From positions 6,101-70,100 of the forward strand of contig JAZUQR010000026.1 of the NCBI GenBank assembly GCA_045605805.1: a DNA stretch of 64,000 bases, given 5' to 3'. This stretch comes from Alphaproteobacteria bacterium. GTDB lineage: Bacteria > Pseudomonadota > Alphaproteobacteria > CAAHEQ01 > UBA3637. The position numbers and the translations under genes are program-made. Below, piece by piece: positions 29,749 through 50,737 of the stretch. Each line of letters begins with the position of its first letter. Position 1 is the stretch's first letter. The notes below the pieces were generated by a model, which worked only from the letters and a program-made list of their open reading frames with translations, ran no database searches and was not told the DNA's origin.

Positions 29749-30153
29749 ATGGATAAAAAACGGATAACTGTCACCGCTGGAATCATTGAATATGAAAACA
29801 AGATTTTAATTGCCGAACGACGCAAAGATAAATCTTTGGGTGGTTTGTGGGAGTTTCCTGGTGGTAAAATTGAACAGGGCGAAACTTGCCCCGAAACGCT
29901 GAAACGGGAAATTAAAGAAGAGTTTGATATTGAAATTGAAGTGGGTGAGTATGTGATGGAACACATCTTTGAATATCCCACCTTCTTCTTGAAAATGTAT
30001 GTTTATAAAGCCACATGGAACGGCCAAGGCACAATTCGGATTTGTGACCACGAACAATATCGCTTTGTCACATTGGATGAAATGGCCAATTTTGAATTTG
30101 CCGGTGCTGATGTGCCAGTCATTGAGTTTTTGAAAAACAATCAAAAATCTTGA
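29749..30153 (+). CDS. Nudix hydrolase, MutT-like (8-oxo-dGTP diphosphatase type)
   Basis: Nudix box 'GGKIEQGETCPETLKREIKEEFDI'. Confidence 0.75.
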   Translation: MDKKRITVTAGIIEYENKILIAERRKDKSLGGLWEFPGGKIEQGETCPETLKREIKEEFDIEIEVGEYVMEHIFEYPTFFLKMYVYKATWNGQGTIRICDHEQYRFVTLDEMANFEFAGADVPVIEFLKNNQKS

Positions 30154-30169: not shown

Positions 30170-31112
30170 TTGATGAGATTAGGATTATTCAAATTGCGCA
30201 ACCGCTTCATTAAAGCCTATGATGAAGGGTGGTTGCCCCCATGCGATGGACATGAAATACATTATTATCAGGTGGGTAATCCATCAGGTGAAGTGGTCAT
30301 TCATTTTCATGGTGGGCCAGGGGGTAGTGCAAAGCCAAGCAGAGCCAGCACCTATAATTTGAAAAAACAAAGAATTATTATGTTTGACCAACGAGCCTGT
30401 GGCCAATCAAGATATCAAGAGGCGTTTTATAAAAACACCCCACAGGATACAGTCAAAGACTGCCAATCGTCTGTTAAAGGCTTTGAAGATAAAGGGGAAA
30501 GTGGTGTCGGCCGGTGCGTCTTTTGGGGCAACATTGGCGGTGTTGTTTGCCCAAACATATCCCCAAAAAATCAAGCGGTTATGTGTGAATAGTGTCTTTT
30601 TGGGCCGACAAAAGGATGTGGAAAATATGACGCCTGTGTCAGATTTATTCTATCCGGATGCGGTGGCACAAGTGAAAAAACAAGTAAAAGGAAAAAACTT
30701 AAATAAAAGCTATGCCCAATTGGTTTTTAGTAAAAAGCAATCAGATAATGAAAAAGCATTGCGTTATTTTGCTCACTTGGAACGCATGGCAGGCGGTGGA
30801 GCATTAAAGGTTGATTTTCCAAAAACATCCTTTACGGAAAAAGATGTTCATCGCTTTCGGGTTTATATGCATTATGTCAAGAATAATATGTTCTTAAAGC
30901 CCAATCAATTGATAAAAGAGGCCACAAAAATAAAACATATTCCGGCTGAGATTTTTCAAAATCGCCTGGATTTTTGCTGTCCGCCCTATCAAGCATGGGA
31001 ATTACATCAAGCATTGCCAAAATCAAAATTGACCCTTGTGGCTGATAAAGGACATGGAAGCACTTTAATGGGGTATCTGATGTATCTGGGTAATAAAGCA
31101 AGAAAGTATTAA
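30170..31112 (+). pseudogene. Proline iminopeptidase-type alpha/beta hydrolase, disrupted by +1 frameshift near 30450
   Basis: N-terminal 'HFHGGPGGS...IIMFDQRACGQS' in one frame, continuation 'ANRLLKALKIKGKVVSAGASFGATLAVLFAQTYP' in another. Junction consistent with a single extra T in 'gactgcc'. Confidence 0.55.
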
Positions 31113-33398: not shown

Positions 33399-33570
33399 GG
33401 GTGACCAGTCAGATTTCAAAAGTGACCAGCCCCCGATTTTTGAAAATAGTATAAGTATTTGATATTACTGTATTTTTATGCGGCCAGTGACGAGACCGAT
33501 TTTTTCTGTTTCGCTAAAAAAATGGCGCGGCTTGTGTCCCCGAATATGAATTATCACCAGGAAGGATCCG
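33399..33570. repeat. Conserved ~170-bp non-coding element, copy A (GTGACCAG iterons plus conserved core 'ttcgcta.aaa.atggcgcggcttg.gtccccg.atatgaa...ccaggaagga')
   Basis: Aligns at ~75% identity with 51152-51318, same orientation. Confidence 0.6.
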
Positions 33571-33633: not shown

Positions 33634-33966
33634 TCATATCTGTTGGATTTCAATCCCCAGCACGCCATATTTTTGTTGAGAATCAGGTGTATAAAATTCT
33701 TGTAAAACCGTAATCAATTCTTCTTTGGATGTAAAACCTGCCTGTTCCGGTGTGATAATTTGGCATAGTTTATCAAAACTTTCGGCCCTGTGCAGGTTTA
33801 TGACCCGAGCAACAAAGGAATCATTTGTATCAGATAAATTAGAAAACACAATCTTATCCCCTATTTTTATTTGTTGCCTTTTTTCGTCAAACAACCTAAG
33901 CTCAACAACTTTTTTACCTGATTTTAACAGATTGTAATACTTTGTTTGGACTTTCATATGATGCAT
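33634..33966 (-). CDS. ASCH-domain protein (YqfB-like)
   Basis: 'LKSGKKVVELRL...IKIGDKIVF' and C-terminal 'YGVLGIEIQ' parallel E. coli YqfB architecture. Confidence 0.55.
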   Translation of the reverse strand: MHHMKVQTKYYNLLKSGKKVVELRLFDEKRQQIKIGDKIVFSNLSDTNDSFVARVINLHRAESFDKLCQIITPEQAGFTSKEELITVLQEFYTPDSQQKYGVLGIEIQQI

Positions 33967-34038
33967 AATTTTTCTCCTTGAAAAGACTTATATTTTAAGA
34001 TATACTATAAAAAACAGTATGCATTAAAGGATACAAAT

Positions 34039-34563
34039 ATGCAAATAAAAACTTTTCATTCTTTTCACAAAGAGCATAAAAAGTTATACGAAGATATTTT
34101 AAGTTTAACTTATTCTGTCAATGATACTTACCCACAATATTCAACTTGGTTTAAAGAAAAGTTTTTACCAGACCTTAAAAATAAAAAAAGGATGTATATC
34201 GTTGCACAGGATGAAAGCGGAAAATTAGTTGGTTGTGTTTTGATTAAAAACACCGAAGAAGAAAAGAAAATTTGTACATTATTGGTTCATCCGGATTATC
34301 GCAAACAAGGTGTTGGTGAAAAACTGATGGAACAAACTTTATCAGAATTAGGTGAGCACCCTTTGATAACCGTTTCTGATAGAAATATAGCACAACTAAC
34401 TCCTCTTTTAAGAAAAAAAGGTTTTCATTTATCGGCAGTTAAAAAAGGGGCTTATCGTCCAGAAGACACAGAGTATTATTTTAACGATAAAAAAGCAGAT
34501 GCTATAAAAAACGGTCTTATTCCCGTTTTAATCAAAAGAATGAATAAATTACGTCAAAAATAA
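34039..34563 (+). CDS. GNAT-family N-acetyltransferase
   Basis: Motif A 'LLVHPDYRKQGVGEKLMEQ'. Confidence 0.7.
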   Translation: MQIKTFHSFHKEHKKLYEDILSLTYSVNDTYPQYSTWFKEKFLPDLKNKKRMYIVAQDESGKLVGCVLIKNTEEEKKICTLLVHPDYRKQGVGEKLMEQTLSELGEHPLITVSDRNIAQLTPLLRKKGFHLSAVKKGAYRPEDTEYYFNDKKADAIKNGLIPVLIKRMNKLRQK

Positions 34564-34591
34564 ATATTTTTCATCGCCTCATTTCAGGCAC

Positions 34592-34633
34592 GAAAAAAGC
34601 CCGTTTCAAACGGGCTGAATCTTAAATTGGTGG
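34592..34633. repeat. 42-bp direct repeat identical to 53901-53942 (tRNA-Ala 3' end plus terminator hairpin); putative att site, left island boundary
   Basis: Exact 42/42 match. Sequences diverge immediately outside. Confidence 0.7.
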
Positions 34634-34813
34634 TGTTACTTGATTTTTGAACGAAAAGGATGCATTTGTCCTTTGCTTTTGGGGCATTTTGCAAATGACT
34701 TGTATGCAAAAATAGTGTTGCTTATCGTCAAAAATGCACCTTTTCAAAATATAAGTTGATAAATCTGTAAATAAGAGCATGTATGGTGATCTCCTCAATT
34801 GAAAGGAGAATAC

Positions 34814-34909
34814 ATGGAAAAACAACTTAAACTCTTGGCTCAAATCATCCTGCCAACGCTCTTAACCGTATTGAAAGATAATAAAAAAAATAAAAAACAC
34901 CGATCTTAA
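34814..34909 (+). CDS. Possible 31-aa hydrophobic/Lys-tailed small peptide
   Basis: Strong RBS gaaaggagaatacATG. 'MEKQLKLLAQIILPTLLTVLKDNKKNKKHRS'. Confidence 0.2.
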   Translation: MEKQLKLLAQIILPTLLTVLKDNKKNKKHRS

Positions 34910-34926
34910 GCCAAAAAAGGATACCT

Positions 34927-35397
34927 CTACTTTTCGGTTTTTTTATAGAGAATAAAGTGAGGTAATTTATCCATATCTATATAATTAAACATTTTATAAT
35001 TAGCTCGTCTGGCTTCAGGAGATAAGGTGTACTTTCTTAAATGATCCTTAGGGACGAAAGGATAGAACCAAATCTCATGATGTGAAACACCTTTTTCTTT
35101 CCATTTAAAATTGAGAATTAACAACGGAGGTAAAATCCCAGCTTTCAAAACTTTTTCCATAATGTCCCAACCGGCTCCACGAACAACGGATGAAGGTTTA
35201 TGGTTAGCACTTTTAATTTGGGCGCGAAAATTACAGCCAGTACATTGAATATCACACAGCGGATAATTGTTTGGTAAAAGCATTAACTTTTTACCGCCAT
35301 TAGGACAACAGACCAAATCTACAACTTCTTGTTCCCCAAGCTTTCCATTTTCCTGGTTAATTGACATTTCTACCTCCATATCTGTTGTTATATACAT
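34927..35397 (-). CDS. Hypothetical protein with Cys-cluster (CC-x11-C-x3-C-x2-C, zinc-ribbon-like)
   Basis: ORF with 'CCPNGGKKLMLLPNNYPLCDIQCTGC'. Confidence 0.4.
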   Translation of the reverse strand: MYITTDMEVEMSINQENGKLGEQEVVDLVCCPNGGKKLMLLPNNYPLCDIQCTGCNFRAQIKSANHKPSSVVRGAGWDIMEKVLKAGILPPLLILNFKWKEKGVSHHEIWFYPFVPKDHLRKYTLSPEARRANYKMFNYIDMDKLPHFILYKKTEK

Positions 35398-35508
35398 AAT
35401 AACAGCTGAAAGTTTTAGAATTTACAATATTATTCAAAAATTTTTCTATTTCACTGGACTTCTTCGTTTTTCCAAGCATTCATTGTAATGTAACGAAAGG
35501 AGTTTATT

Positions 35509-35763
35509 ATGAATACAGTTAAAGTTTATTTGGTGCGAAAACCTTTGGATTTTGAAGAAGTAAAAAACTTATGCAAAAAGTATGCGCATAAGGCCGAAGA
35601 GATCTTAATTGAAGAAACTGTCAACCTACCACCAACTTGGTATGAGGAGTTTTGCCAACGCCCATTGGATAACTACATTTTCTTATCCGGTAAAGGCGGT
35701 TATGATGATTTAGGCCACCGCAAAGTAGTTGCTATAAAATGCCTAGGCAAGCCAACGCTCTAG
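35509..35763 (+). CDS. Small protein family A (paralog of 50738-51046); ends at an in-frame TAG
   Basis: RBS aaaggag. 'YIFLSGKGGY' shared with paralog. Confidence 0.55.
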   Translation: MNTVKVYLVRKPLDFEEVKNLCKKYAHKAEEILIEETVNLPPTWYEEFCQRPLDNYIFLSGKGGYDDLGHRKVVAIKCLGKPTL

Positions 35764-35809
35764 GTTGATCCTTCCGGCTCAAGCTATTGCCGATATATGG
35801 GAGTAGAAA

Positions 35810-36046
35810 ATGAAAAATTATAATGACATTCCTCCAAATTACAAAATCAGCATGCCGATGGTTTATAACCACGCAATTAGAGTACTTGATAGGCTGGATA
35901 GACGACTGAGCAGACTTAACACCCCAGCGCTACCGATTAAATACAAATACGAAATCAATCGTCTAGAACATAAACTGGAACAAATGGTCGCTAAATACAA
36001 AGCCATTGAAAAGGAGTTGGAATATGTCCGAACCAAAATATCCTGA
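35810..36046 (+). CDS. Hypothetical small coiled-coil protein
   Basis: RBS gggagtag. Absent from the paralogous cassette. Confidence 0.3.
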   Translation: MKNYNDIPPNYKISMPMVYNHAIRVLDRLDRRLSRLNTPALPIKYKYEINRLEHKLEQMVAKYKAIEKELEYVRTKIS

Positions 36047-36227
36047 GATAACTGTGCACCTGGCAGGTGAAAATGGGAATGCTTTTTATATTTTAGGCAA
36101 ATGTCGTTCGGCGATGAGGCGTGCTAACATCTCCAAAGAAGAACAAGATGAATTTTACCGCCAAGCCACCGCCAGCGACTATAATCACTTATTCATCACC
36201 TGTATGGAATGGTTTAATGTAGAATAG
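36024..36227 (+). CDS. Small protein family B (paralog of 50530-50727)
   Basis: RBS aaggag. 'KYPEITVHLAGENGNAFYILG' conserved with paralog 'KYPDIIVQLTGKDGNAFNILG'. Confidence 0.55.
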   Translation: MSEPKYPEITVHLAGENGNAFYILGKCRSAMRRANISKEEQDEFYRQATASDYNHLFITCMEWFNVE

Positions 36228-36292
36228 GTCTATTTTTCTTGATTTTTTATGAATTAAAGGATATGCTGATTAAAAATCAGGAGGAAATAGCT

Positions 36293-37216
36293 ATGCAACC
36301 CAAATTTTTACATTCTTTTGTGACGCGTTCTCATAAAGGCGTTTATGGCATTATTCGGAAAAATAATCAGATTTTACTCATCCGTAAAGCACGTGGTCCC
36401 TATACAGGGCTTTATGATTTGCCCGGTGGAAGTCCGGAAGCTGATGAAACACCTGAACAAACAGTGGCTCGTGAAATCAAAGAAGAAACAAATTGTGATT
36501 TAATTTCTTGCACCAACCAACGTGAAAAAACAATTTTCTTTTCCAAATTTACCAAAGAAAGTGGAGAAGAAGGCTGTATGCAACACACGGGGATTTTGTT
36601 TGATGTTAAGGTGGCGGGTGAACCCACAACCCAAGGGGATGGATTAGATTCCAATGGAGCTGTTTGGGTAGATATCAATACTTTATCCAGTCAAAATGCA
36701 ACACCTTTTGTTTTAATGGGCTGTGGTAAGGAAGTTATCAATTTAGCCAATGAAGAGGATTACCCTGTGGATGTCGCTGTGCGTGGGGAACCTATCCCCG
36801 AAGGAAGGTGTCCCATGATTGCAGGTCTCTTTTTGTTCAACTCTAAAGGCAATATTATTTTGCAGAAAGTGGCTTTATCAAAGAAAACAGATCCGGGGAA
36901 ATGGAGTTATTCTGCTGCTGGGCATGTGGATGCTGGTGAAACTTATGAACAGGCTGCCTTACGTGAATTAAGCGAAGAAATGGGAATTAAGGCCTCCGGC
37001 ATAACCTTTGTTGGAAAAGGCCATATATTAAAGAACGGCAATCCTCGTGCTTTTCATCATGTATTCAAGGTGATTTCTGATGATAAGATTACTTTTGAAC
37101 CGACCGAGGTAGCCGAAGTTAAAGAATGGACTATTCCGGAATTAAAAGAGCAAATAGGGACTCACCCCGAACAATTCAAAGATATTTTTGCCCAAATTTT
37201 TATGGAGGTCTTTTAA
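36293..37216 (+). CDS. Tandem (double) Nudix hydrolase
   Basis: Two Nudix boxes: 'GGSPEADETPEQTVAREIKEETNCD' and 'GHVDAGETYEQAALRELSEEMGI'. Confidence 0.75.
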   Translation: MQPKFLHSFVTRSHKGVYGIIRKNNQILLIRKARGPYTGLYDLPGGSPEADETPEQTVAREIKEETNCDLISCTNQREKTIFFSKFTKESGEEGCMQHTGILFDVKVAGEPTTQGDGLDSNGAVWVDINTLSSQNATPFVLMGCGKEVINLANEEDYPVDVAVRGEPIPEGRCPMIAGLFLFNSKGNIILQKVALSKKTDPGKWSYSAAGHVDAGETYEQAALRELSEEMGIKASGITFVGKGHILKNGNPRAFHHVFKVISDDKITFEPTEVAEVKEWTIPELKEQIGTHPEQFKDIFAQIFMEVF

Positions 37217-37229
37217 TCAAGGAGGAAAC

Positions 37230-37664
37230 ATGTCAGGACCAGAAAGATTTAAAGTACCCGTTGGGATTTTTATAATGCTACGTCAAGACGATAAAGTTTT
37301 GTTGCAGCTGAGGCAAAATTGCTCGTTCAGTGGATATTGGGGATTCGTTGGTGGCCATTTGGATGGAAATGAACAGATCATCTCTGCCGCTATTCGTGAA
37401 GCAAAAGAGGAAGTCGGGGTGGATATTTTACCGGACGATTTGACCTTAAAGACCATTTGCCACAGTAATAAAGGCGAAGAGTACCTGCAATTTTATTTTG
37501 AATGTCGCAAGTGGTTAGGTGAAATTGAAAATAAGGAGCCCCACAAATGCGAACGCTTGGAATGGCATGAATGGAATAAGCTCCCTGAGCATACTTGTCC
37601 CTATTTGAAGGAAGCAGTAAGCAAAATCAATTCAGGAATTTCTTTTTACGAGGATACTTTTTAA
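37230..37664 (+). CDS. Nudix hydrolase
   Basis: 'GGHLDGNEQIISAAIREAKEEVGVD'. RBS aaggagg. Confidence 0.75.
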   Translation: MSGPERFKVPVGIFIMLRQDDKVLLQLRQNCSFSGYWGFVGGHLDGNEQIISAAIREAKEEVGVDILPDDLTLKTICHSNKGEEYLQFYFECRKWLGEIENKEPHKCERLEWHEWNKLPEHTCPYLKEAVSKINSGISFYEDTF

Positions 37665-38254
37665 TGCTGAATAAACTTATTTACTTAACGACAAATCCTC
37701 ATAAAGTTCAAGAAGCCAATGAATTTCTTATTAAGAAATATGGGTTTAATTTGGAAATCATGAAACCTTCTTTTGAAGTGCTGGAGATTCAAGCAAAAAC
37801 TTGTGGCGAGGTTGCGAAATTTAGCGCTAAGTATGGGGCTGAAAAACTGGGAGTTCCGGTTTTGAAATCCGATTCAGGACTTTATATCGAAGCATTGGGC
37901 GGTTTGCCAGGACCTTATAATGCCTATTTTGACAAGCAAATAGGAACAGAAAAGTTTTTGGATATGATGAAAGATATCCCAAATAGGCATGCTAAATTGG
38001 AACATTGTTTTGCTTATTGTGAGCCAGGACAAGAACCCATCTTGTTTACAGGGGGAAGTACGGGGCGTATTTCTTATGAAGCCAAAGGAGAGAAAGGGCG
38101 TTGGCATGACAAGTTTTATATCCCTGATGGGGAAGAAAAAACACTCAGCGAATTACGCGCCATCAACCATGAATATGAGGCACAATTTTGGGGACATGCC
38201 TTGGATGACTTTGCAAAATGGTACAAAGAAAAATTAGAAAAGGATAAAATTTAG
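37664..38254 (+). CDS. Ham1/Maf-superfamily non-canonical purine NTP pyrophosphatase (ITPase-like)
   Basis: 'LTTNPHKVQEAN' and 'SDSGLYIEALGGLPGPYNAYF' motifs. TAATG overlap with upstream gene. Confidence 0.7.
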   Translation: MLNKLIYLTTNPHKVQEANEFLIKKYGFNLEIMKPSFEVLEIQAKTCGEVAKFSAKYGAEKLGVPVLKSDSGLYIEALGGLPGPYNAYFDKQIGTEKFLDMMKDIPNRHAKLEHCFAYCEPGQEPILFTGGSTGRISYEAKGEKGRWHDKFYIPDGEEKTLSELRAINHEYEAQFWGHALDDFAKWYKEKLEKDKI

Positions 38255-38268
38255 TGAAAGGATAACAA

Positions 38269-38850
38269 ATGCAATTACCAGAACAAATTGAATCAGAACG
38301 GATTATTTTAAAGCACCCTATGAAACCGACCTTTAAATTGGCTGAGGAGCTTTACGCGATTGTGGATAAATCCAGAAATACTTTAAGCGAATGGCTCCCT
38401 TGGGTGGATAAAACGAACTCTGTAGAGGATGAATTTACTGGATATCTGGTGAGTCTGAATCAAAAACATTGGGATGAAGGAAATGGTTTCGGTTATCTTA
38501 TTTATCAAAAGGAAACAAATCAGATTTTAGGCGTTGTGGATTTATGCCATGTTGAGGAAAAACATCAATCCGCCGAAATCGGGTATTGGCTCTCTGATGA
38601 CGCAACAGGTCATGGGTATATGCAAGAGGCTGTGCGTGCGTTGGAAAGCGAGGCCTTTCAAAATGGACTTAACCGGATTATCATCAGAAATGATACTTTG
38701 AATATACGCTCTGCCCATGTGGCTGAACGCTGTGGTTATATTTTGGAAGGTGTCATGCGTCAAGATTGTTGGGATGATTATCATCAGCATTTACGTAATA
38801 CCAATATCTGGAGCAAACTCAAATCCGAATGGGAGAAAGAACAAAAATGA
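38269..38850 (+). CDS. GNAT acetyltransferase (RimJ/RimL-like)
   Basis: 'IGYWLSDDATGHGYMQEAVRAL' motif. Confidence 0.7.
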   Translation: MQLPEQIESERIILKHPMKPTFKLAEELYAIVDKSRNTLSEWLPWVDKTNSVEDEFTGYLVSLNQKHWDEGNGFGYLIYQKETNQILGVVDLCHVEEKHQSAEIGYWLSDDATGHGYMQEAVRALESEAFQNGLNRIIIRNDTLNIRSAHVAERCGYILEGVMRQDCWDDYHQHLRNTNIWSKLKSEWEKEQK

Positions 38851-40058
38851 TTTCACTCAAATCAGCCCCTAGATGGTTATCTATTGCTTATGCCTTAACA
38901 TCGGCATTGTTTTGCCTGCCGACATTAATGCTTTTTTATGGGTTTAAAGGTGTTGGTATGGGGGATTTTTTCTTGATTCAAGGGATATCAAATCTCACTG
39001 TATTTTTTATGGAAGTTCCAACCGGCTATATCGGTGATTTGTTTTCCAGAAAACACACTTTAATTATCGGGGTATTGTTTTGGATCTTGGGGCATGTTAT
39101 TTGGATTTTGGGTTCAGGATTTTTCATTATTTTACTGGGGGAATTGTTATTTGCATTAGCGATTGCTTTCATTTCCGGCACGGCGGAAGCATATTTATAC
39201 GATTTATTGAAAAAACGACATAAAGAAAGTTTATTCCATAAAAAATATGCTAAAATGAAAATGTTGGATGGAATTGCTTTGATGGTGGCTACGCTGACCG
39301 GTGCTTTTATCTATCAATTTTTGGGGCCAACCATTCCGTTATACTTAACAATTTTCTGTTTAATGTTAAGTGTTGTTATTTTATGGCAATTACCGGATGT
39401 TCCCGAATCCAGACGTATTGTTGACAAAGATAAAAGCAAATGGCAGGATATTTTGGATATTTCCAAATATGCCGTTAAACATCCTGAAATAAAATGGCTG
39501 ATGCTTTTACCGGCGGTGTATGGGACATTAACGCTTATTTTGATGTGGGGATTACAATCCGTTATGGTATTTCATCAATTACCTGTATTTGTTTTCAGTT
39601 TGATTTTAGGGATAAACGCATTGATGAGAACTTTTTGGTCGGGCGTTTCCGGTCGGATATTGGAAAAAATAAACCTTTCCGGAACCATAAAATTGCAAAG
39701 TTTAATTATTATCATTGCCTCTTTGGGGGCATGTATATCGGCCTATGTTCCGTTATGGGGTGTTTATATATGTTTGGGCTTGATGATTATCGGATCAGCC
39801 TCCAGTTCTTTATCCAGTATCACAACATCTGTTTTGGTCAATCATAGGATTCAATCCAATGAACGGGCGACAATTTTATCGGTTAAATCAATGCTGGCAA
39901 AGGCTTTTCATGGGGTGGGACTTATCTGCTTGAAACCCTTGTTTGACGGAATAGGTGTCGGACCAACTTTTATGGTATCTGCCCTGCTTTTAATCCCTAT
40001 TCTGATTTGTGCAAGACACCTGTATAAGATGAAGTTAAGGATAATGAAAGGGGACTGA
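38847..40058 (+). CDS. MFS transporter
   Basis: 12 TM helices. ATGA overlap with upstream stop. Confidence 0.7.
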   Translation: MISLKSAPRWLSIAYALTSALFCLPTLMLFYGFKGVGMGDFFLIQGISNLTVFFMEVPTGYIGDLFSRKHTLIIGVLFWILGHVIWILGSGFFIILLGELLFALAIAFISGTAEAYLYDLLKKRHKESLFHKKYAKMKMLDGIALMVATLTGAFIYQFLGPTIPLYLTIFCLMLSVVILWQLPDVPESRRIVDKDKSKWQDILDISKYAVKHPEIKWLMLLPAVYGTLTLILMWGLQSVMVFHQLPVFVFSLILGINALMRTFWSGVSGRILEKINLSGTIKLQSLIIIIASLGACISAYVPLWGVYICLGLMIIGSASSSLSSITTSVLVNHRIQSNERATILSVKSMLAKAFHGVGLICLKPLFDGIGVGPTFMVSALLLIPILICARHLYKMKLRIMKGD

Positions 40059-40059
40059 T

Positions 40060-40953
40060 ATGCTGATACTGAACATCAATGGGCCAATGAATTCTGGGAA
40101 ATCTACGGTTTCTAAGATTTTGGTGAATATGCTCCCTAACGCCACTTTTATTGAAGTGGATGAATTAATGAGTGATGAGGAACAAGAAAAACTGGGGCTA
40201 TCCCTGCAACAAGGGTGGCGGGAACGTCATAAACGATTAAATCAGAAATTAAGGGCTCTTAAAAAATCGCATGAGTATGAAACTGTGATTTTTGCTTATC
40301 CGATTGCTGACAATACTTATCAGGATTGGAAAATGCTGGAGGATAACCACACAAAGTTTTTGAACATTACCCTTGCGCCCAGTTTGGAAGAATGTTTGAA
40401 AAATCGTGGCACACGAGAACTCACCGATTGGGAAAGAAATCGCATTCGTGAAATGTATGAAGAGGGATATCAAAACCGCCCATACGCCGACTTTATCATC
40501 AATAATGACCATCAAACACCCAAAGAAACTGCTGAGATTATTAAAGGATTTATTGAACATGCTCTCTCCCCAAAACAACAATGGTTACATTTGGTGGAAA
40601 AACGTTGGCCCGCCCTTTTGAACGGAGAAAAAACTTCCACTTTCCGTTTCAATGAAGGTTTCATCCATAAGGGCTTCTTGGTTTATAAAGACTGCCCAAA
40701 CGAACAGTTGGCCGAGGTTGTTTATGTGACACATGTGTATTATGTGCCTTTGCGCCAAGCCAATGAAATAGACGGATATGATGAGCATACACCGGATATG
40801 GAAACAGCCTTAAAACAAATGCGTGTTCATTATCCAGATATTACTTTGGATACGCCCATTTTATTTGCTCAGCACTTAGGAGTTCCTGAAACCAAACAGA
40901 AATATCCAGAAGAAGTTAAAGAAATATTGGAGAAAATGAATGTCAAAAACTAA
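40060..40953 (+). CDS. P-loop small-molecule kinase (CPT/zeta/uridine-kinase-like) fused to a C-terminal ASCH-like domain
   Basis: Walker A 'INGPMNSGKSTV'. C-terminal 'LLNGEKTSTFRFNEGFIHKG' ASCH-like. Confidence 0.5.
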   Translation: MLILNINGPMNSGKSTVSKILVNMLPNATFIEVDELMSDEEQEKLGLSLQQGWRERHKRLNQKLRALKKSHEYETVIFAYPIADNTYQDWKMLEDNHTKFLNITLAPSLEECLKNRGTRELTDWERNRIREMYEEGYQNRPYADFIINNDHQTPKETAEIIKGFIEHALSPKQQWLHLVEKRWPALLNGEKTSTFRFNEGFIHKGFLVYKDCPNEQLAEVVYVTHVYYVPLRQANEIDGYDEHTPDMETALKQMRVHYPDITLDTPILFAQHLGVPETKQKYPEEVKEILEKMNVKN

Positions 40954-41347
40954 ATTATCAGTATGTGGTGTCATTGTACATCAGAGCAAATTTCTAATAG
41001 TCAAACGTTCTGAAACAGATGACTTTTTGCCAAATTGTTGGGAATTCCCTGGTGGTGGTGTAGAAGATGGTGAAACAATATCCGAAGCCTTGAAACGAGA
41101 AATAAAAGAAGAAATAGGTTGGGATATATCAAATGAATATCCAAAACTCATCGGTATTTCTGAAGAGTTTATGAATGAAGAAAAAACAGAAAGATATTTA
41201 CAATTAAATTATAAGATTGTTATGGACACAGAACCCAACATGACACTCAGTTCCGAACATGTCGCTTTTGATTGGGCGGACACGACCGATTCCAGATTGG
41301 ACGATTTTCTAAAAGAGATTATTAGGCAACTGAATACAACAATCTAA
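40940..41347 (+). CDS. Nudix hydrolase
   Basis: 'GGGVEDGETISEALKREIKEEIGWD'. Confidence 0.7.
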   Translation: MSKTKLSVCGVIVHQSKFLIVKRSETDDFLPNCWEFPGGGVEDGETISEALKREIKEEIGWDISNEYPKLIGISEEFMNEEKTERYLQLNYKIVMDTEPNMTLSSEHVAFDWADTTDSRLDDFLKEIIRQLNTTI

Positions 41348-41729
41348 ACTCTTCGCATTCTAACATTGTGTCAGGGGTAATGTCTTTCCAATATGCCTTG
41401 TGAATTTTGCGCCAAGTAGCAAGGGTTTTATCTCCTTCGCCTTCTTTACGAGCAAAATCGGCATCTACATTATTAAAAGGAACAACAGAGACTTTGGTAT
41501 CCTCAATAATTGCTTGAGCATTACCAGTAGAATCTAGGATAATACTGATATCTCCTGCTTGATTGGTATTGCCACCTCGATAAATGCAACTAGTGGCCGT
41601 TTTCTCGCCACTTATGACCAATTGCAACAACTCATCTGGTTTGTCGCCAAAAGTAAAGATGTCATAAGATTTGCCTTTATATGATGGGAACTTTTCAACA
41701 AACTCTTTCCATAATTGTTCGGGAGTCAT
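41322..41729 (-). CDS. ASCH-domain protein
   Basis: 'FTFGDKPDELLQLVISGEKTATS' canonical ASCH N-terminal motif. Confidence 0.65.
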   Translation of the reverse strand: MTPEQLWKEFVEKFPSYKGKSYDIFTFGDKPDELLQLVISGEKTATSCIYRGGNTNQAGDISIILDSTGNAQAIIEDTKVSVVPFNNVDADFARKEGEGDKTLATWRKIHKAYWKDITPDTMLECEEFRLLYSVA

Positions 41730-41983
41730 TTGTTTCGCGCTCCTTTTACCCCAAAGACAGCTTTGAAGTTATACCTGTTCTTGTGAATAAGTTCAACCCC
41801 ATGGGCTTTGGATATAACCAGAACATATTTGCCTATCCACAGACGAAAGTAATAACTTTTAATGGCTAATTTAATATTTTCTTTTGTGCGATATTCAGTA
41901 CCATCAGCCCGCTCCACTTCAACACTTCGGCCGAAGCCAAAGCGATTGTTATCCAAATCAAATCCGTATTCAATGTAAATCAT
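41726..41983 (-). CDS. Hypothetical small protein in RM operon
   Basis: ATGA-coupled to downstream ASCH gene and overlaps upstream phosphatase gene. Confidence 0.4.
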   Translation of the reverse strand: MIYIEYGFDLDNNRFGFGRSVEVERADGTEYRTKENIKLAIKSYYFRLWIGKYVLVISKAHGVELIHKNRYNFKAVFGVKGARNK

Positions 41984-42440
41984 TTTTCTCCAAATAATCT
42001 AAAAACGCTTGGCAACCTTCATAAATATCCCAATAGGTTTCATCAAAGTTGCCAGTGTACCAAGGGTCTTTAACTGGTCGAGGATTTTGGGTGAAGTCCA
42101 ACAGACGATGCACTTTATGGTCTTTATCCTCGCCAACGATATCCAAAATATCCCGCACATTGTTATCGTCCATCGCCAAAATATAGTCAAATTTATCATA
42201 GTCGGACTTGCGAATTTGACGCGAGTAGTGTTGGGTGAAAGGGACTTTCATCTGCCGAAGCATATCCGCCGCTCGGTAATCCAGCGCCTCATGCACCATT
42301 TCGTTATACCCCTCTGTCGCGGCAGAGACAATTTCAAACTTGTCCGCTACACCTTTCTCAGCGACCATTTGCTTCATCACAAATTCCGCCATTGGCGACC
42401 GACAAATATTTCCAAGACATACGAATAGAACTTTAATCAT
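41970..42440 (-). CDS. Low-molecular-weight protein-tyrosine phosphatase / ArsC-like
   Basis: 'VLFVCLGNICRSPMAE' CX5R P-loop and 'DPWY' motif. TAATG overlap with hsdR stop. Confidence 0.8.
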   Translation of the reverse strand: MIKVLFVCLGNICRSPMAEFVMKQMVAEKGVADKFEIVSAATEGYNEMVHEALDYRAADMLRQMKVPFTQHYSRQIRKSDYDKFDYILAMDDNNVRDILDIVGEDKDHKVHRLLDFTQNPRPVKDPWYTGNFDETYWDIYEGCQAFLDYLEKNDLH

Positions 42441-45400
42441 TAAGCAACCCTCACATTGTCTGTCCAAAGTTCACATTGAGTCATAACCGTTTCAACGGCA
42501 TCCTCTACACCTTCTGGGGGATACTTATGCTTTTTCAATAACTTTTTAATAAGCATACGCATCTTTGCACGAGCATTCTCACGCCTTTGCCAGTCAATTG
42601 TTTTATTTTTACGCAGTGTTTCTGTTAGTTCTTTTGTAATGGCAACTAATTCGTCATTTTCATAAAAATCCTTAACTGCTTGAGGCTTTGTTAATGCATC
42701 ATAAAAGGCAACTTCTTCTGGTGTTAATCCTAAATCTGCCCCTTCCTTTTGGGCCTCCGAAATTTGTTTTGCCAGGCTGAGTAACTCTTCTATTACCTGC
42801 TCGTTGGTAAGCATACCATTTAGGTAGCGGTTCATAATTGCCTGAATTATTTCACTAAACTTTTCAGAACGCACAACGTTTGTTTTACGGTAAATAGAAA
42901 TTTGTTCTGCAATTAATTTTTTCAAAAGTTCAAGGGCTAAATTCTTTTGTTTCATTTTTGAAATTTCTTCCAAAAACTTCGGATCAAACAAAGAAAATTC
43001 TTTCTTTACATCAGAAAATAAATTAATAACGCCATCGCTTTTTATACTTTGTTTCAGCAACTCATTAATACGTTCATTCATTTCCTTCAAAGAAATCTTT
43101 TTGCCTTCTCCTGCATTAGTTAAGCGTAAGGTCAAAACACGAACGGCTTCCATAAAAGCGGCTTCTATGCGTTTTTCTTCCTTAACAATAGAAGAACACA
43201 AAGATAAGGATTGATGTAGCATCAAGGCATGCTTCAGGAATTGTTCTTTTTTCTTATCTGTTCCAATAATAAAGTTTACTGCCCCACTAATAAGCTCAGC
43301 ACGCTTTAAATTACTACCCGTCATAAATTGTTGATAATCAAATCCATGCAATAAATCACGACAAACACTTAATTTTTCTTCAAATTCTTTAAGTGCTGTT
43401 TCAGCGATATTCATATTTCCATAGTTCTTTTTATCACGAACTGTGTAATCGTTCATCGCTTGTTTCAGCGCATTTGCAATTCCGACATAATCTACAACAA
43501 GTCCACCTTCTTTATCCTCAAATACACGATTAACGCGAGCTATTGCCTGCATTAAATTATGTCCCATCATTGGTTTATAAACATACATCGTTGCCAAAGA
43601 AGGTACATCAAATCCGGTCAACCACATATCCACCACAATGGCAATTTTTAGAGGATCTTTGTTATCCTTAAATTTACGGGCCAACGCTTCTTTATGAGAT
43701 TTATTTCCAATGATTTGACGCCAATCTTCTGGGTCATCATTACTAGAAGTCATCACAACCCCCACTTTTTCTTTCCAATTGGGACGTAATTTTAAGATTT
43801 CTTCATAAATTTTCAAAGCAATAGGACGTGAATAAGCAACAATCATCGCCTTTCCAGTAAGCAAGTTTTCCCGATAATTTTCATAGTGGTCTATAATATC
43901 GTTTACCAAGGAATGAATAGTGTTATCATTCCCCAGAATTGCTTCCATTTGCCCAAGTTTCTTTTTACTTGCTTCAATGACTTCAGGATCTGCATTTTGG
44001 GCCATTAAATCATATTCATCATCAATTTTCTTGAGTGTTTCTTTATCCAGATTCAACTTAACCACTCGACTTTCATAGTAAACGGGGCGAGTTGCTCCAT
44101 CTTCCACAGCCTGTGTCATATCATAGATATCAATATAATTTCCAAACACTTCTTGCGTATTTCTGTCTTTTTTGGAAATAGGTGTCCCCGTAAACCCGAT
44201 AAATGTTGCATTTGGAAGACTATTGCGGATAACACGAGCAGTCCCTGTTTTAATTTTCCCGTCTTTGGTTATTTTTTCCGCCAAACCATATTGCCCCCGA
44301 TGAGCTTCATCTGCCATCACAATAATATTCCGGCGAGTGGACAATGGCTCTTCGGATTCTTCAAACTTCTGCATCGTTGTAAAGAAAATCCCATTGGCCT
44401 TGATACCATTTAATAACTTTTTCAAATGTTCCCGACTAGTTGCTTGAACGGGTTCTTGTCTTAAAAAGTCTTTACATTTGGCAAATTGTCCATAGAGTTG
44501 ATCGTCCAAATCATTGCGGTCTGTTAGTACCACAATTGTCGGACTGTTTAAAGCACTTTGTAGCAGGTGGGCATAAAACACCATAGATAAAGATTTACCA
44601 GAACCTTGTGTATGCCAAAACACACCACCTTTACCATCTGTTTCTGTTGCTTTTTGAGTTGAAGTAATGGCTTTTTTCACCGCGAAGTATTGGTGATATC
44701 CGGCCAAGATCTTTTTGCTTCCTTTATTTTCATTGGAAAAGCAAATAAAGTTCTTCAAAATATCCAAGAGTCTCTCTTTTGGAAAGATGCCTTTAAAAAA
44801 AGTATCAAACTGTGCGTGTTGGGTATTTTCATATTTTCCATCCACAGTTTTCCATTCCATAAAGCGTGTTTCATCAGAAGTAATCGTTCCCGCCTTGGAT
44901 GTCAATAAATCGCTTGTGACGCAAATAGCGTTATAGATAAACATAGAGGGGATTTCATGTTTATAGTTTTGGATTTGGCGATATGCCTCGGAGGCATCTG
45001 TTTCTTCACGGGAAGGAGATTTCAACTCCATCAAAACCAAAGGCAATCCGTTCACAAATAACAAAATATCCGGACGTTTTTCGCTGTTTTCAATAAAGGT
45101 CCATTGGTTAGCTACAATAAAAGAGTTTTTATCAGGTCTATTATAATCAATCAAATAAACAATGGTATCTTTGGGTTCTCCCTTTTCTGTATAGCGAACC
45201 GTAATACCACTTTGCAAATACTCCATAAACACAGCATTCTTTTGTGTTAGTTCTGCGTTCTCAAAGTTCTTTAATTTTGTTAAGGCCTCTTTAATCGCCA
45301 CTTCGGGAAGTTTAGGATTCAAGCGGCACAAAGCATCAATCAACTCATCTTCGTATAAGGGAGAATGAAAATCCCGACTTTCTAAATCAGGCCCATAGAC

Positions 45401-45487
45401 ATACCGATACCCCATCCCCTCAAACAACTCTATTACAGAGTTTTCATAAGCTTCTTCATTTACAGGATTGATAAAAGTATCGGTCAT
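42440..45487 (-). CDS. hsdR: Type I restriction enzyme R subunit
   Basis: 'TQGSGKSLSM' motif I, 'MADEAHRGQ' DEAH box, 1015 aa, HsdR N-terminal nuclease region. Confidence 0.9.
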   Translation of the reverse strand: MTDTFINPVNEEAYENSVIELFEGMGYRYVYGPDLESRDFHSPLYEDELIDALCRLNPKLPEVAIKEALTKLKNFENAELTQKNAVFMEYLQSGITVRYTEKGEPKDTIVYLIDYNRPDKNSFIVANQWTFIENSEKRPDILLFVNGLPLVLMELKSPSREETDASEAYRQIQNYKHEIPSMFIYNAICVTSDLLTSKAGTITSDETRFMEWKTVDGKYENTQHAQFDTFFKGIFPKERLLDILKNFICFSNENKGSKKILAGYHQYFAVKKAITSTQKATETDGKGGVFWHTQGSGKSLSMVFYAHLLQSALNSPTIVVLTDRNDLDDQLYGQFAKCKDFLRQEPVQATSREHLKKLLNGIKANGIFFTTMQKFEESEEPLSTRRNIIVMADEAHRGQYGLAEKITKDGKIKTGTARVIRNSLPNATFIGFTGTPISKKDRNTQEVFGNYIDIYDMTQAVEDGATRPVYYESRVVKLNLDKETLKKIDDEYDLMAQNADPEVIEASKKKLGQMEAILGNDNTIHSLVNDIIDHYENYRENLLTGKAMIVAYSRPIALKIYEEILKLRPNWKEKVGVVMTSSNDDPEDWRQIIGNKSHKEALARKFKDNKDPLKIAIVVDMWLTGFDVPSLATMYVYKPMMGHNLMQAIARVNRVFEDKEGGLVVDYVGIANALKQAMNDYTVRDKKNYGNMNIAETALKEFEEKLSVCRDLLHGFDYQQFMTGSNLKRAELISGAVNFIIGTDKKKEQFLKHALMLHQSLSLCSSIVKEEKRIEAAFMEAVRVLTLRLTNAGEGKKISLKEMNERINELLKQSIKSDGVINLFSDVKKEFSLFDPKFLEEISKMKQKNLALELLKKLIAEQISIYRKTNVVRSEKFSEIIQAIMNRYLNGMLTNEQVIEELLSLAKQISEAQKEGADLGLTPEEVAFYDALTKPQAVKDFYENDELVAITKELTETLRKNKTIDWQRRENARAKMRMLIKKLLKKHKYPPEGVEDAVETVMTQCELWTDNVRVA

Positions 45488-46808: not shown

Positions 46809-46810
46809 AT

Positions 46811-48022: not shown

Positions 48023-48032
48023 CAAATATTCC

Positions 48033-50727: not shown

Positions 50728-50737
50728 GACGATCTCC

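Follow-up and report, generated by a model that had tools for sequence, protein, structure and literature searches.

The window analysed here (the whole stretch of 64,000 nucleotides) derives from the genome of an uncultured gut alphaproteobacterium. Between 33.6 and 41.7 kb, Pfam detects three ASCH domains, two GNAT acetyltransferases, five Nudix domains, an ITPase and an MFS pump. An earlier note, made from the letters alone, had recognized the three ASCH domains and two GNATs, and Pfam agrees with every one of these domain calls; the Nudix enzymes it mentioned nearby are present as well, but it had undercounted them (five domains, in addition to the ITPase). The Nudix set comprises a tandem protein (36239-37216), the single genes 37188-37664 and 40940-41347, and a further Pfam-detected gene upstream of the cluster (29749-30153), and the REx2EE core is intact in all five domains. 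This region is best explained, tentatively, as an accessory gene cluster that is typical of one clade of uncultured gut Alphaproteobacteria.

Gene Organization of the Cluster

The genes are organized in three units: a divergent ASCH1/GNAT1 pair, a plus-strand operon, and a convergent string encoding a low-molecular-weight phosphotyrosine-phosphatase-fold protein (LMW-PTP), a DUF3977 protein and ASCH3. The operon consists of 10 tightly packed genes with gaps of -70 to +46 bp, and most overlaps vanish once the genes are taken to begin at their probable true starts. At its head lie three small genes (35509..36227; ORF calls of 84, 78 and 73 aa) without any Pfam match, the third of which matches phrog_1933 (E 3e-22); they precede Nudix genes in three related loci as well. 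They are followed by the tandem-Nudix protein (36239..37216; Pfam NUDIX, 124 bits over two stretches; Nudix box GHVDAGETYEQAALRELSEEMG), which probably starts at ATG 36293 behind a ribosome-binding site, by a single-domain Nudix hydrolase (37188..37664; E 1e-17, Nudix box intact; probable start ATG 37230) and by a Ham1/RdgB-type non-canonical purine NTP pyrophosphatase, the ITPase (37595..38254; Pfam Ham1p_like, E 2e-30; probable start ATG 37664). The latter matches the NCBIfam XTP/dITP diphosphatase model with E 6e-43, under the family cut-off. The operon tail encodes GNAT2, an MFS transporter (38829..40058; Pfam MFS_1, E 5e-20), the kinase::ASCH fusion and a last single-domain Nudix hydrolase (40940..41347; E 9e-17, Nudix box intact). 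On the minus strand, the genes for the LMW-PTP-fold protein (41970-42467; Pfam LMWPc) and the DUF3977 protein (41726-41983; Pfam DUF3977) are co-directional with ASCH3 and lie upstream of it.

A type I restriction-modification (R-M) system and a DpnI-like nuclease adjoin the cluster, and 17.7 kb including both the cluster and the R-M system is bracketed by a 78-nt direct repeat. The segments at 34-36 kb and 44-50 kb are GC-poor, and an inverted pair paralogous to the small genes at the operon head is found at 50530-51067. Marks of mobile elements lie near the cluster and the kinase loci, with a resolvase or integrase adjoining the cluster in relatives.

ASCH Domains and Their Partners

Judged by their sequences, the three ASCH copies belong to three different subfamilies. 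ASCH1 (33634..33966, minus strand) is a standalone protein of 110 aa of the GKER type (Pfam ASCH, 40.4 bits, cut-off 21.2; pI 7.8). The earlier note had called this copy YqfB-like, an assignment that does not hold: its octapeptide, GKKVVELR, carries Glu in place of the Thr of YqfB, and among solved structures it is closest to PH0355 and PF0455 (best PDB matches 2z0t, E 1e-13, and 1s04). G17, K19, E22 and R24 are retained by orthologues down to 51% identity. GNAT1 (34039..34563, plus strand; 174 aa; Pfam Acetyltransf_7/10/1, E ~1e-11), with weak PDB similarity to RimI and NAA10 only, is transcribed divergently from it. The 72-bp spacer between both genes (33967..34038) is presumably a shared promoter region and contains a promoter-like site on the plus strand (33978-34006). 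The divergent arrangement is found in four related loci with a spacer of 64-72 bp and with different flanking genes in each, while the ASCH1 orthologues share 92, 61, 54 and 51% identity. The GNAT1 orthologues (96, 41, 39 and 34% identity) are always divergent to an ASCH1 orthologue. GNAT1 is the conserved partner of ASCH1.

The YqfB-like copy is instead ASCH-k, the domain fused to the kinase (residues 169-297; 40564..40953, plus strand; Pfam ASCH match in residues 185-261 of the protein encoded at 40060-40953, 28.0 bits; pI 5.9). Its octapeptide, GEKTSTFR, carries the Lys, Thr and Arg that ASCH-k orthologues conserve and for which each Ala mutant of YqfB is inactive (PMC6972931). A Tyr-Pro that is likewise conserved lines up with Tyr89-Pro90 of YqfB, and E242 stands opposite Glu74 at a position that varies (E/A/D) among orthologues; pairwise, no sequence similarity between ASCH-k and YqfB is detectable. 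The preceding P-loop small-molecule kinase domain (residues 1-168; 40060..40563, plus strand; SKI, 25.4 bits) has the Walker A motif GPMNSGKS, and D34, R116 and R119 are conserved family-wide. Foldseek matches it with shikimate and gluconate kinase, RapZ, TmrD and NMP kinases, and the family profile matches NRK1, BH3686 and TmrD, as well as, weakly, the NCBIfam model of Gar/GrdA. Weak similarity to nucleotide kinases is seen with a PHROG thymidylate kinase (5e-8), the PADLOC pVip-kinase domain and, again, NRK1. Among the nearest named relatives of the family are antibiotic-resistance-type proteins (Gar/GrdA, TmrD) as well as nucleoside kinases. The kinase-ASCH fusion itself is found in about 31 species.

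ASCH3 (41322..41729, minus strand; Pfam ASCH, 76.8 bits; pI 4.8) is of the DUF984/EF3133 type, with PDB matches to 1t62 (E 2e-16) and 3s9x. Its octapeptide, GEKTATSC, is without the terminal Arg and is accompanied by an EGEGD motif; G41, K43, T46, E96, G97, E98, W106 and H110 are invariant in the family. The string LMW-PTP-DUF3977-ASCH3 recurs, convergent with kinase::ASCH, in three related loci, in one of which ASCH3 directly adjoins kinase::ASCH. In another locus it adjoins a GNAT, an LbH acetyltransferase and P-loop kinases, and a GNAT-ASCH3-LbH operon occurs among relatives. Streptococcal homologues reach 45% identity; there, the ASCH3-type genes sit within a miscellany of small genes.

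GNAT2 (38269..38850, plus strand; Pfam Acetyltransf_3, 79.5 bits) is of the RimL/MccE type. In the PDB it is closest to the MccE acetyltransferase (3r95, E 1.8e-14), with YdaF and RimL next. MccE acetylates aminoacyl-nucleotide antibiotics. In three related loci GNAT2 lies directly upstream of kinase::ASCH, and in two others a GNAT of this type is fused to Nudix.

Linkage in Related Genomes

Linkage statistics were calculated for those 78 of 80 related loci in which ORF calling recovered the kinase. GNATs account for 18% of the ORFs directly beside the kinase compared to 0.4% of those more than six genes away, and Nudix proteins for 12% compared to 0.9%, which corresponds to a 13- to 45-fold enrichment; ASCH1- or ASCH3-type genes were not found beyond six genes from the kinase in these loci. 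The same families are also joined covalently. Pfam confirms Nudix::ASCH1-type, GNAT::Nudix, S51::ASCH3-type, HAD::ASCH-k-type, ASCH-k-type::GNAT, kinase::GNAT and Nudix::kinase proteins in relatives, and at least seven distinct fusion architectures are built from the ASCH, GNAT, kinase and Nudix families in different lineages. Related islands also contain an LbH acetyltransferase, and an MFS gene adjoins the kinase in eight related loci.

The grouping exceeds chance. The pairings seen in the cluster recur in related genomes, both as neighbors and as fusions. Together with the conserved divergent pair and the enrichment near the kinase, they support the suggestion of the earlier note that ASCH, GNAT, kinase and Nudix proteins are linked by a functional theme. 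The gene content around the kinase is nonetheless very variable, even between genomes at 80-90% identity, and mobile-element marks are nearby, so the fusions could in part stem from genes simply lying side by side in compact genomes.

Functional Interpretation

Because ASCH domains are fused to the kinase, to Nudix and to HAD proteins, nucleoside or nucleotide substrates are suggested. In our preferred, still tentative reading (probability about 0.4), the enzymes of the cluster serve to process or detoxify nucleosides and nucleotides that are N-acylated or abnormal in some other way. As small amidohydrolases, the ASCH domains would strip cytosine-type bases of an N-acyl group, as in N4-acyl-cytidine-like compounds, and the fused kinase may phosphorylate the nucleoside, either substrate or product, which would make kinase::ASCH a two-step salvage enzyme, deacylase and kinase in one. 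Aberrant (d)NTPs would be hydrolyzed by the Nudix proteins and the ITPase, the GNATs (GNAT2 being of RimL/MccE type) may N-acetylate amino groups of nucleotide-like compounds, and the MFS pump could export the products. The combined outcome would be the salvage or detoxification of modified or toxic nucleosides met by a gut bacterium. Acetyltransferase and deacylase acting on one substrate is a mechanistic paradox that counts against this explanation.

The more specific proposal of ac4C/YqfB chemistry stands in part. In vitro, 19 of 19 ASCH proteins tested, of both GKTR and GKER types, are reported to be ac4C deacetylases (preprint 10.64898/2026.02.27.708502). Compared to the catalytic residues of YqfB, ASCH-k keeps Lys, Thr and Arg; ASCH1 replaces Thr by Glu but falls within the GKER type whose tested members were ac4C-active, whereas the missing terminal Arg of ASCH3 speaks against it. 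As a substrate of the cluster, ac4C is plausible but not established.

It is possible, if doubtful, that the enzymes have unrelated substrates and have gathered in a permissive, horizontally exchanged hot spot, with fusions as by-products of tight packing. The differing kinase neighbors at 80-90% identity, the adjacent resolvase or integrase in relatives, the low-GC segments, the 78-nt repeat, gene overlaps of up to tens of bases and the mixed surroundings of the streptococcal genes fit this idea. Yet the ASCH1/GNAT1 arrangement and its spacer are kept in four unrelated contexts although identity has dropped to 51% (ASCH) and 34% (GNAT), the fusions reuse four domain families instead of arbitrary neighbors, and the enrichment declines steeply with distance from the kinase.

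Antibiotic or xenobiotic resistance is unlikely. Here, a Gar/TmrB-like P-loop phosphotransferase, the GNATs and MFS efflux would inactivate and export a drug (an aminoglycoside, a nucleoside antibiotic or a microcin-C-like aminoacyl-nucleotide) and the ASCH domain would cleave its amide bond, e.g., in an N4-acyl-cytosine antibiotic. TmrD (2vli) is among the best PDB matches of the kinase family and 17 of its 36 members weakly match the Gar/GrdA gentamicin-resistance model, yet the best match (E 8e-13), like all others, is far below the cut-off. Kinase-GNAT adjacency and fusion recall known bifunctional modifying enzymes, and the MccE likeness of GNAT2, the MFS gene beside the kinase and the LbH acetyltransferase point the same way. 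However, none of the ten proteins of the stretch scanned against NCBIfam matched a resistance equivalog, the abundance of Nudix proteins and the ITPase are atypical for resistance cassettes, and the ASCH fusions to Nudix and HAD rather suggest ordinary nucleotide chemistry.

Action on RNA is less probable still. The cluster would then serve to modify or repair RNA: its ASCH proteins would be tRNA ac4C erasers or RNA-binding modules, its kinase would be a polynucleotide 5'-kinase, and its Nudix enzymes would target the 5' ends of RNA. Diverse ASCH proteins do remove tRNA ac4C (preprint 10.64898/2026.02.27.708502), association with RNA is classic for the ASCH/PUA superfamily (PMC7641849), the charge of ASCH1 is near neutral, and weak AAA_33, Nudt16-like and RppH-type similarities were found. 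In that preprint, however, YqfB-type amidohydrolases showed no nucleic-acid binding and tRNA-binding ASCH proteins mostly had a pI near or above 9, while ASCH-k and ASCH3 share the acidic character of YqfB (pI 4.7), and the kinase has the fold of small-molecule kinases and not specifically that of the PNK family.

We give hardly any credence to the defense or counter-defense role that the earlier note had considered, be it an ASCH domain that senses a modified nucleotide and triggers a nucleotide-depleting Nudix/kinase, by analogy with PUA-Cal-HAD, or a GNAT-ASCH-AAA_17 base-acetylation or toxin-antitoxin system tied to the adjacent type I R-M: beyond the neighboring R-M system and DpnI-like nuclease and the precedent of (PIN)-GNAT-EVE operons, which nearly always contain ASCH, often with an AAA_17 P-loop protein, near type I R-M (PMC7641849), and of a defense system in which a PUA-clan domain senses m6-dAMP (preprint 10.64898/2026.01.15.699771), PADLOC matches no system in the cluster but only generic Nudix (candidate PDC-S07) and kinase domains, tblastn detects no phage homologues, the scanned proteins contain no Pfam EVE or PIN domain, R-M is missing from many of the contexts in which the ASCH1/GNAT1 pair and the kinase are found, catalytic-type residues are conserved, and an ITPase with MutT-like Nudix proteins is a classic housekeeping sanitizer set.

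Comparison With Known Systems

The closest known counterpart of ASCH-k is E. coli YqfB, an N4-acetylcytidine amidohydrolase (PDB 9KYF/1TE7). ASCH-k differs by its fusion to a P-loop kinase, by extra C-terminal helices and by having no assignable counterpart of Glu74/His70, and neither ASCH1 nor ASCH3 belongs to the YqfB type. The full length of ASCH1 can be aligned with archaeal PH0355 (2Z0T; PF0455, 1S04), and the protein bears the G-K-E-R octapeptide of amidohydrolases such as TthASCH. Unlike the archaeal proteins, ASCH1 is bacterial; it is also firmly tied to a divergently transcribed GNAT, and its counterparts in relatives are fused to Nudix. ASCH3 shares the GxKTAT and EGEGD motifs with the EF3133/DUF984 group (COG4405-like; 1T62, 3S9X), which also has no terminal octapeptide Arg and was explicitly excluded from the 2026 activity survey.

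GNAT2 resembles the C-terminal domain of MccE and RimL, but scores below every NCBIfam equivalog cut-off, and the cluster is without microcin genes. The kinase domain shares its fold, Walker A, conserved Asp and lid arginines with Gar/GrdA, TmrB/TmrD and shikimate, gluconate and nicotinamide-riboside kinases; it belongs to none of these families, and the ASCH fusion is unique to it.

As a whole, the cluster recalls the (PIN)-GNAT-EVE operons (Iyer et al., 2013; Bell et al., 2020, PMC7641849), in which a GNAT recurrently accompanies ASCH and a small P-loop NTPase, frequently near type I R-M; this trio is likewise present in the window, adjacent to R-M. EVE and PIN domains are missing from the scanned proteins, as is an HTH-ASCH fusion; instead, ASCH is fused to a kinase or Nudix, the cluster is rich in Nudix and contains an ITPase, and the association of GNAT, ASCH and P-loop protein persists away from R-M systems.

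Gene Organization of the Cluster

The ASCH and GNAT genes lie in chromosomal DNA (~40% GC) of an uncultured gut alphaproteobacterium, with upstream housekeeping neighbours (PriA, a tyrosine recombinase and QueA) and a type I restriction-modification (R-M) operon downstream. The domains named in the earlier note are confirmed by Pfam. Three ASCH domains (PF04266; 40.4, 28.0 and 76.8 bits against a cut-off of 21.2) are found in ASCH1 (33634-33966, minus strand), in a kinase-ASCH fusion (40060-40953, plus strand) and in ASCH3 (41322-41729, minus strand). In the 297-aa fusion protein, the N-terminal half is a P-loop kinase and residues 185-261 form the ASCH domain, referred to here as ASCH-k. GNAT1 (34039-34563, plus strand) and GNAT2 (38269-38850, plus strand) are both single-domain acetyltransferases. 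Nucleotide enzymes are more numerous than the earlier note had counted: Pfam identifies a tandem-Nudix protein (36239-37216), two single Nudix genes (37188-37664 and 40940-41347) and a Ham1/ITPase (37595-38254), all on the plus strand together with an MFS transporter (38829-40058), as well as a further MutT-like Nudix (29749-30153).

These genes are laid out in three units. In the first, ASCH1 and GNAT1 are divergent, with a 72-bp spacer between them. The second comprises ten co-directional plus-strand genes in the order three small genes, tandem Nudix, Nudix, ITPase, GNAT2, MFS transporter, kinase-ASCH fusion and Nudix, with intergenic gaps of -70 to +46 bp; translation from the ATGs 36293, 37230 and 37664, each of which has a ribosome-binding site, would remove most overlaps. 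The third is a minus-strand string of LMW-PTP, DUF3977 and ASCH3, convergent with the second unit and continuous with the type I R-M genes.

Homologues of the kinase-ASCH fusion come almost only from assemblies named 'MAG: Alphaproteobacteria bacterium' from human and animal gut, with Candidatus Enterousia, Candidatus Scatocola and Proteobacteria bacterium CAG:495 among the sources. An exact-sequence look-up of the fusion protein itself matched no record.

Relationship of the ASCH Domains to YqfB

ASCH proteins occur throughout life, human TRIP4 and EOLA1 among them. To our knowledge, firm ASCH biochemistry is limited to the hydrolysis of N4-acetylcytidine (ac4C) by E. coli YqfB, the deletion of which has no clear phenotype. 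Alanine substitution of Lys21, Thr24 or Arg26 inactivates YqfB, mutation of the acid Glu74 slows it 100- to 1000-fold, and His70 and the substrate-contacting Tyr89 contribute as well (PMC6972931). The three ASCH domains of the window belong to three different subfamilies, and the PUA-like beta-barrel fold of the ASCH superfamily is present.

Among them, only ASCH-k combines the Lys, Thr and Arg without which YqfB is inactive. Its octapeptide GEKTSTFR agrees with the ASCH pattern GxKxx[E/T/S]xR and is of the Thr or 'GKTR' type, as in YqfB, and K191, T194 and R196 are invariant. Pairwise BLAST between YqfB and ASCH-k detected nothing and a phmmer search of the PDB with the ASCH-k domain alone gave no match. 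With a profile of 16 diverse family members, YqfB (9kyf, 1te7) becomes the top PDB sequence, aligned end-to-end with an E-value of only 0.027, and hhalign gives an E-value of 3.5e-4 with a probability of 37%. In these alignments the octapeptides are in register and the invariant Tyr258-Pro259 falls on Tyr89-Pro90 of YqfB. Glu74 of YqfB aligns with E242, which is E, A or D among orthologues and is flanked by the invariant D241 and H243; another acidic position (about E248) is kept in the wider family. YqfB is a small single-domain monomer of ~103 aa, whereas ASCH-k makes up the C-terminal half of the 297-aa fusion protein; elsewhere, relatives of 120-135 aa occur as standalone proteins.

The label 'YqfB-like' had been given in the earlier note to the gene at 33634-33966, which is the wrong copy. 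ASCH1 aligns over its full length with the archaeal proteins PH0355 and PF0455 (E 1e-13 and 2e-11), and pairwise BLAST with YqfB yields just a weak 38-residue match around the octapeptide. This octapeptide, GKKVVELR, also fits the ASCH pattern and is of the Glu or 'GKER' type, with Glu at the position of the YqfB Thr. ASCH3 belongs to the EF3133/DUF984 group (1t62, E 2e-16), in which Gly, Lys and Thr are invariant, an EGEGD motif is present and the terminal Arg is missing; its octapeptide GEKTATSC keeps G, K and T and has no terminal Arg. Pairwise BLAST of YqfB with ASCH3 gave no useful match. The correspondence with Lys21, Thr24 and Arg26 of YqfB holds for ASCH-k but not for the other two copies.

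In a 2026 preprint from the laboratory that characterized YqfB, all 19 assayed ASCH proteins of the GKTR and GKER types strip ac4C from tRNA in vitro, and most also cleave free ac4C; the survey did not include the bacterial group whose terminal position is substituted (10.64898/2026.02.27.708502). Since every assayed GKTR and GKER protein was active, amidohydrolase chemistry is a reasonable inference for ASCH-k and ASCH1, which we regard from their motifs as putative amidohydrolases, and it is not extended to ASCH3.

The Kinase, Nudix and GNAT2 Enzymes

The kinase half of the fusion carries the Walker A motif GPMNSGKS, and Asp34 and the lid arginines R116 and R119 are conserved among 36 family members. 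The full-length model, which is confident (pLDDT 93.8, pTM 0.91), suggests from its pTM that the kinase and ASCH domains would be packed against each other. In Foldseek its top 50 matches are all kinases, with a probability of 1.0 to shikimate and gluconate kinases; ASCH-k was therefore modelled separately. Fold similarity does not discriminate between shikimate/gluconate kinases, RapZ, the tunicamycin-resistance protein TmrD and NMP, dephospho-CoA and APS kinases. The family profile matches nicotinamide riboside kinase, BH3686 and TmrD, while individual members match weakly a Gar/GrdA gentamicin-resistance model (17/36) or shikimate kinase (13/36). PHROGs assigns the kinase to thymidylate kinase and PADLOC to the kinase part of viperin-kinase fusions (pVip-kinase, E 3e-5). 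It is a P-loop kinase of the NMP/shikimate-kinase fold, the sequence of which does not reveal the substrate class.

All Nudix domains of the window keep the REx2EE catalytic core (Pfam, 62-124 bits). The Nudix box is canonical in three of them; those of Nudix0 and of the tandem protein's domain 1 depart from it only in a replaced final Gly, as judged partly by eye. The closest solved relative of GNAT2 is the acetyltransferase MccE, followed by RimL; MccE detoxifies microcin C.

Linkage in Related Genomes

Conservation of the association was followed in 80 loci around kinase homologues, one per species, with neighbour counts taken from the 78 loci in which ORF calling found the kinase; L-numbers denote these and other fetched loci of related genomes and P-numbers related proteins. 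The intact fusion is present in ~31 species, and the kinase is standalone in more distant relatives. Only a few close relatives (L006, L007, L009, L014) retain the exact operon, and elsewhere the neighbours vary widely. Individual neighbours vary, but the kinds of neighbour do not. GNAT genes account for 18% of the ORFs directly beside the kinase versus 0.4% more than six genes away, and Nudix genes for 12% versus 0.9%; Ham1, MFS and LMW-PTP genes also cluster around it. Further recurrent neighbours are an LbH acetyltransferase, proteins of the CYTH and YpsA-SLOG types and two additional kinds of P-loop kinase. Among the kinase neighbours given no label by our family profiles, a 156-aa AAA_33 kinase is the commonest (22 loci).

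The same domains are also fused in relatives, as confirmed by Pfam. ASCH domains are joined to Nudix (ASCH1-type, 260 aa; L043, L053, L058, L060), HAD (ASCH-k-type, P0262), GNAT (ASCH-k-type, P0278) and S51 peptidase (ASCH3-type, L060) domains. Further combinations are GNAT(Acetyltransf_3)-Nudix (L046, L078), kinase-GNAT (L065, L069, L071, P0243, P0372), Nudix-kinase (P0357) and kinase-kinase (P0118). The kinase family is also found fused to inorganic pyrophosphatase (PF00719) or to a second AAA_33/zeta-toxin-like kinase (L097 5650-6516, minus strand; P0037, P0106, P0107, P0118).

The cleanest single result concerns ASCH1 and GNAT1, which travel together as a module. Orthologues of ASCH1 with 92, 61, 54 and 51% identity are each paired with an orthologous GNAT (96, 41, 34 and 39%), and all four pairs are divergent and 64-72 bp apart, in wholly different surroundings (EF-Tu; APH/S41; def-fmt-LigT; AAA_28/AstE). 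For ASCH3, an 82%-identical homologue again lies in a string of LMW-PTP, DUF3977 and ASCH3 convergent with a kinase-ASCH fusion. A 69%-identical homologue belongs to an operon in the order GNAT, ASCH3 and LbH acetyltransferase, and the genes on its flanks encode a thymidylate-kinase-like protein, an S51 peptidase and a pyrophosphatase-kinase fusion. A 45%-identical streptococcal homologue has several GNAT genes around it and glmU-Nudix-pfs downstream. In the Streptococcus anginosus group and relatives (L082-L086), a 41-43%-identical DUF984-type ASCH gene has a conserved place upstream of glmU-Nudix-MacP-pfs, and in L083-L086 it is preceded by three GNAT genes, suggesting that the ASCH-GNAT-Nudix company extends beyond the alphaproteobacterial clade. 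The co-occurrence of ASCH, GNAT and Nudix genes is thus conserved in neighbour enrichment, in fusions and in the ASCH1/GNAT1 pair. Our literature search found no report of an ASCH-GNAT-Nudix-kinase association in these bacteria, and no description of the kinase-ASCH fusion, the Nudix-ASCH fusion or the ASCH1/GNAT1 pair.

Flanking Repeats and Possible Remnants

A 78-nt direct repeat with 85% identity (33489-33566 and 51231-51308) brackets 17.7 kb in which both the type I R-M operon and the complete ASCH/GNAT/Nudix/kinase cluster lie. The window contains the 21-nt core of this repeat just twice, with no occurrence expected by chance, and each copy has a second shared block with GTGACCAG motifs ~90 nt upstream. 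The repeats may mark the boundaries of an island or may serve as a regulatory or RNA element. Rfam detects nothing in the repeat-bearing intergenic region, and its only matches across the window are two tRNAs. None of the 102 fetched loci contains the core; a single viral-contig match covers only the core and was judged to be due to chance.

A pair of small genes (84 aa and 73 aa, the latter matching phrog_1933; 35509-36227, plus strand) has an inverted paralogous copy (50530-51067, minus strand) with 71-75% DNA identity. The two copies stand at the heads of the two convergent strings, one before the plus-strand Nudix operon and the other before the minus-strand string that runs from hsdM through hsdR to LMW-PTP, DUF3977 and ASCH3. 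The type I R-M operon (42440-50491, minus strand; hsdR 42440-45487, hsdS 46811-48052, hsdM 48914-50491) is interrupted by three genes with no confident Pfam domain (45484-46338, 46335-46814 and 48033-48917). A 156-aa DpnI-family protein (Dam-replacing; 34927-35397, minus strand) is encoded where the GC content of the region is lowest (0.34). It aligns only to the N-terminal part of its models (17-152 of 183 in Pfam, 23-151 of 256 in PADLOC), hence is much shorter than the full families, and may represent a methyl-directed nuclease that is split or survives as a remnant.

Further out, the overlapping ORFs 30170-30592 and 30384-31112 (plus strand), in different frames, look like a frameshifted alpha/beta-hydrolase (proline-iminopeptidase-like) pseudogene, with intact homologues near the kinase in L002 and L013. 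Two overlapping ORFs (52985-53714, minus strand), by eye resembling a broken large serine recombinase, adjoin a tRNA-Ala (53937-54012, minus strand), which suggests the remnant of an integrated element. In related genomes, serine recombinase (resolvase) and integrase genes flank the kinase-ASCH/ASCH3 module (L011 13453-14052, minus strand; L100 1489-2082, plus strand, and 7517-8405, minus strand), consistent with a mobile cluster or a recombination hot spot.

Discussion

Domain identity and linkage are firm here, and everything beyond them is inference. The earlier note had read the ASCH and GNAT genes as a modified-cytidine theme, possibly serving defence. As a theme on modified nucleosides or nucleotides, the ASCH-GNAT-kinase-Nudix linkage is well supported by the comparative data; since ASCH-k has the Lys, Thr and Arg needed by YqfB and the co-occurrence is conserved, the grounds for rejection named in the earlier note do not overturn it.

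We propose, with a probability of about 40%, that the cluster salvages or detoxifies modified nucleosides or nucleotides. The ASCH domains would free a cytosine-type base of its N-acyl group, phosphorylation of the nucleoside would fall to the fused kinase, and the Nudix enzymes and ITPase would hydrolyse aberrant (d)NTPs, while the GNATs would acetylate amino groups on nucleotide-like compounds and the MFS transporter would export the products. The partnership of an acetyltransferase with a deacylase is left unexplained by this proposal, and ac4C itself is unlikely to be the specific substrate. A bolder version, which we consider doubtful, unites ASCH, GNAT, P-loop kinase and Nudix/HAD enzymes in one unrecognised network whose substrates would be N-acylated nucleosides or nucleotides of one class, with the fusion as a bifunctional deacylase-kinase. 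Such a network might reversibly N-acetylate a nucleotide metabolite, GNAT1 being the writer and ASCH1 the eraser, or might inactivate N4-acyl-cytosine or aminoacyl-nucleotide antibiotics. If true, it would be the first physiological pathway context for ASCH proteins.

That the genes are functionally unconnected and merely collected in a 'junk drawer' island is somewhat improbable: the variable gene content and the marks of mobile elements agree with it, yet the conserved ASCH1/GNAT1 pair, the fusions and the steep distance-dependent enrichment do not. An antibiotic or xenobiotic resistance cassette made up of kinase, GNAT and MFS transporter, which overlaps with the detoxification side of our main proposal, seems unlikely as a separate explanation; the matches to TmrD, Gar/GrdA and MccE are those that bear on it. 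Erasure of ac4C from RNA, or RNA repair, is very unlikely; the tRNA activity of ASCH proteins in vitro is among the points for it. According to the 2026 preprint, YqfB-type amidohydrolases showed no binding to nucleic acids, and most ASCH proteins that bind tRNA have a pI near 9 or higher (10.64898/2026.02.27.708502). ASCH-k (5.9), ASCH3 (4.8) and YqfB (4.7) are all acidic. The ASCH1/GNAT1 pair and the kinase-ASCH and Nudix-ASCH fusions suggest that the ASCH substrates in these bacteria are free nucleosides or nucleotides, not RNA. Phage defence or counter-defence is set aside as highly improbable, since tblastn of ASCH1 and of the kinase-ASCH fusion matched none of 50,697 phage genomes, PADLOC 2.0 recognized no described defence system in the cluster beyond generic matches (Nudix to the candidate PDC-S07, the kinase to pVip-kinase, the DpnI-like protein to mREase_II), and Pfam found no EVE or PIN domain in the proteins scanned in or beside it.

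The ASCH/GNAT pair, the kinase-ASCH fusion and the Nudix-ASCH fusions name partner enzymes and could thereby make the cellular role of ASCH proteins testable. N4-acyl-fluorocytidine prodrugs are described in PMC10688628 as already activated by YqfB-type enzymes. If the enzymes of the cluster handle modified or drug-like nucleosides, they would be relevant to the gut microbial metabolism of nucleoside analogues.

Comparison With Known Systems

A related arrangement has been described for the predicted (PIN)-GNAT-EVE systems, in which GNAT and ASCH are combined with a small P-loop protein of the AAA_17 type and type I R-M genes are frequently close by (PMC7641849). The triad of GNAT, ASCH and small P-loop NTPase and the R-M neighbourhood are shared by our cluster, and the triad recurs in its relatives. 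Unlike those systems, the cluster has none of the EVE and PIN domains that define them and is tied instead to Nudix, ITPase, HAD and kinase fusions. In a defence system, a PUA-clan domain senses the free nucleotide m6-dAMP (10.64898/2026.01.15.699771), which is a precedent for small-nucleotide ligands in this fold.
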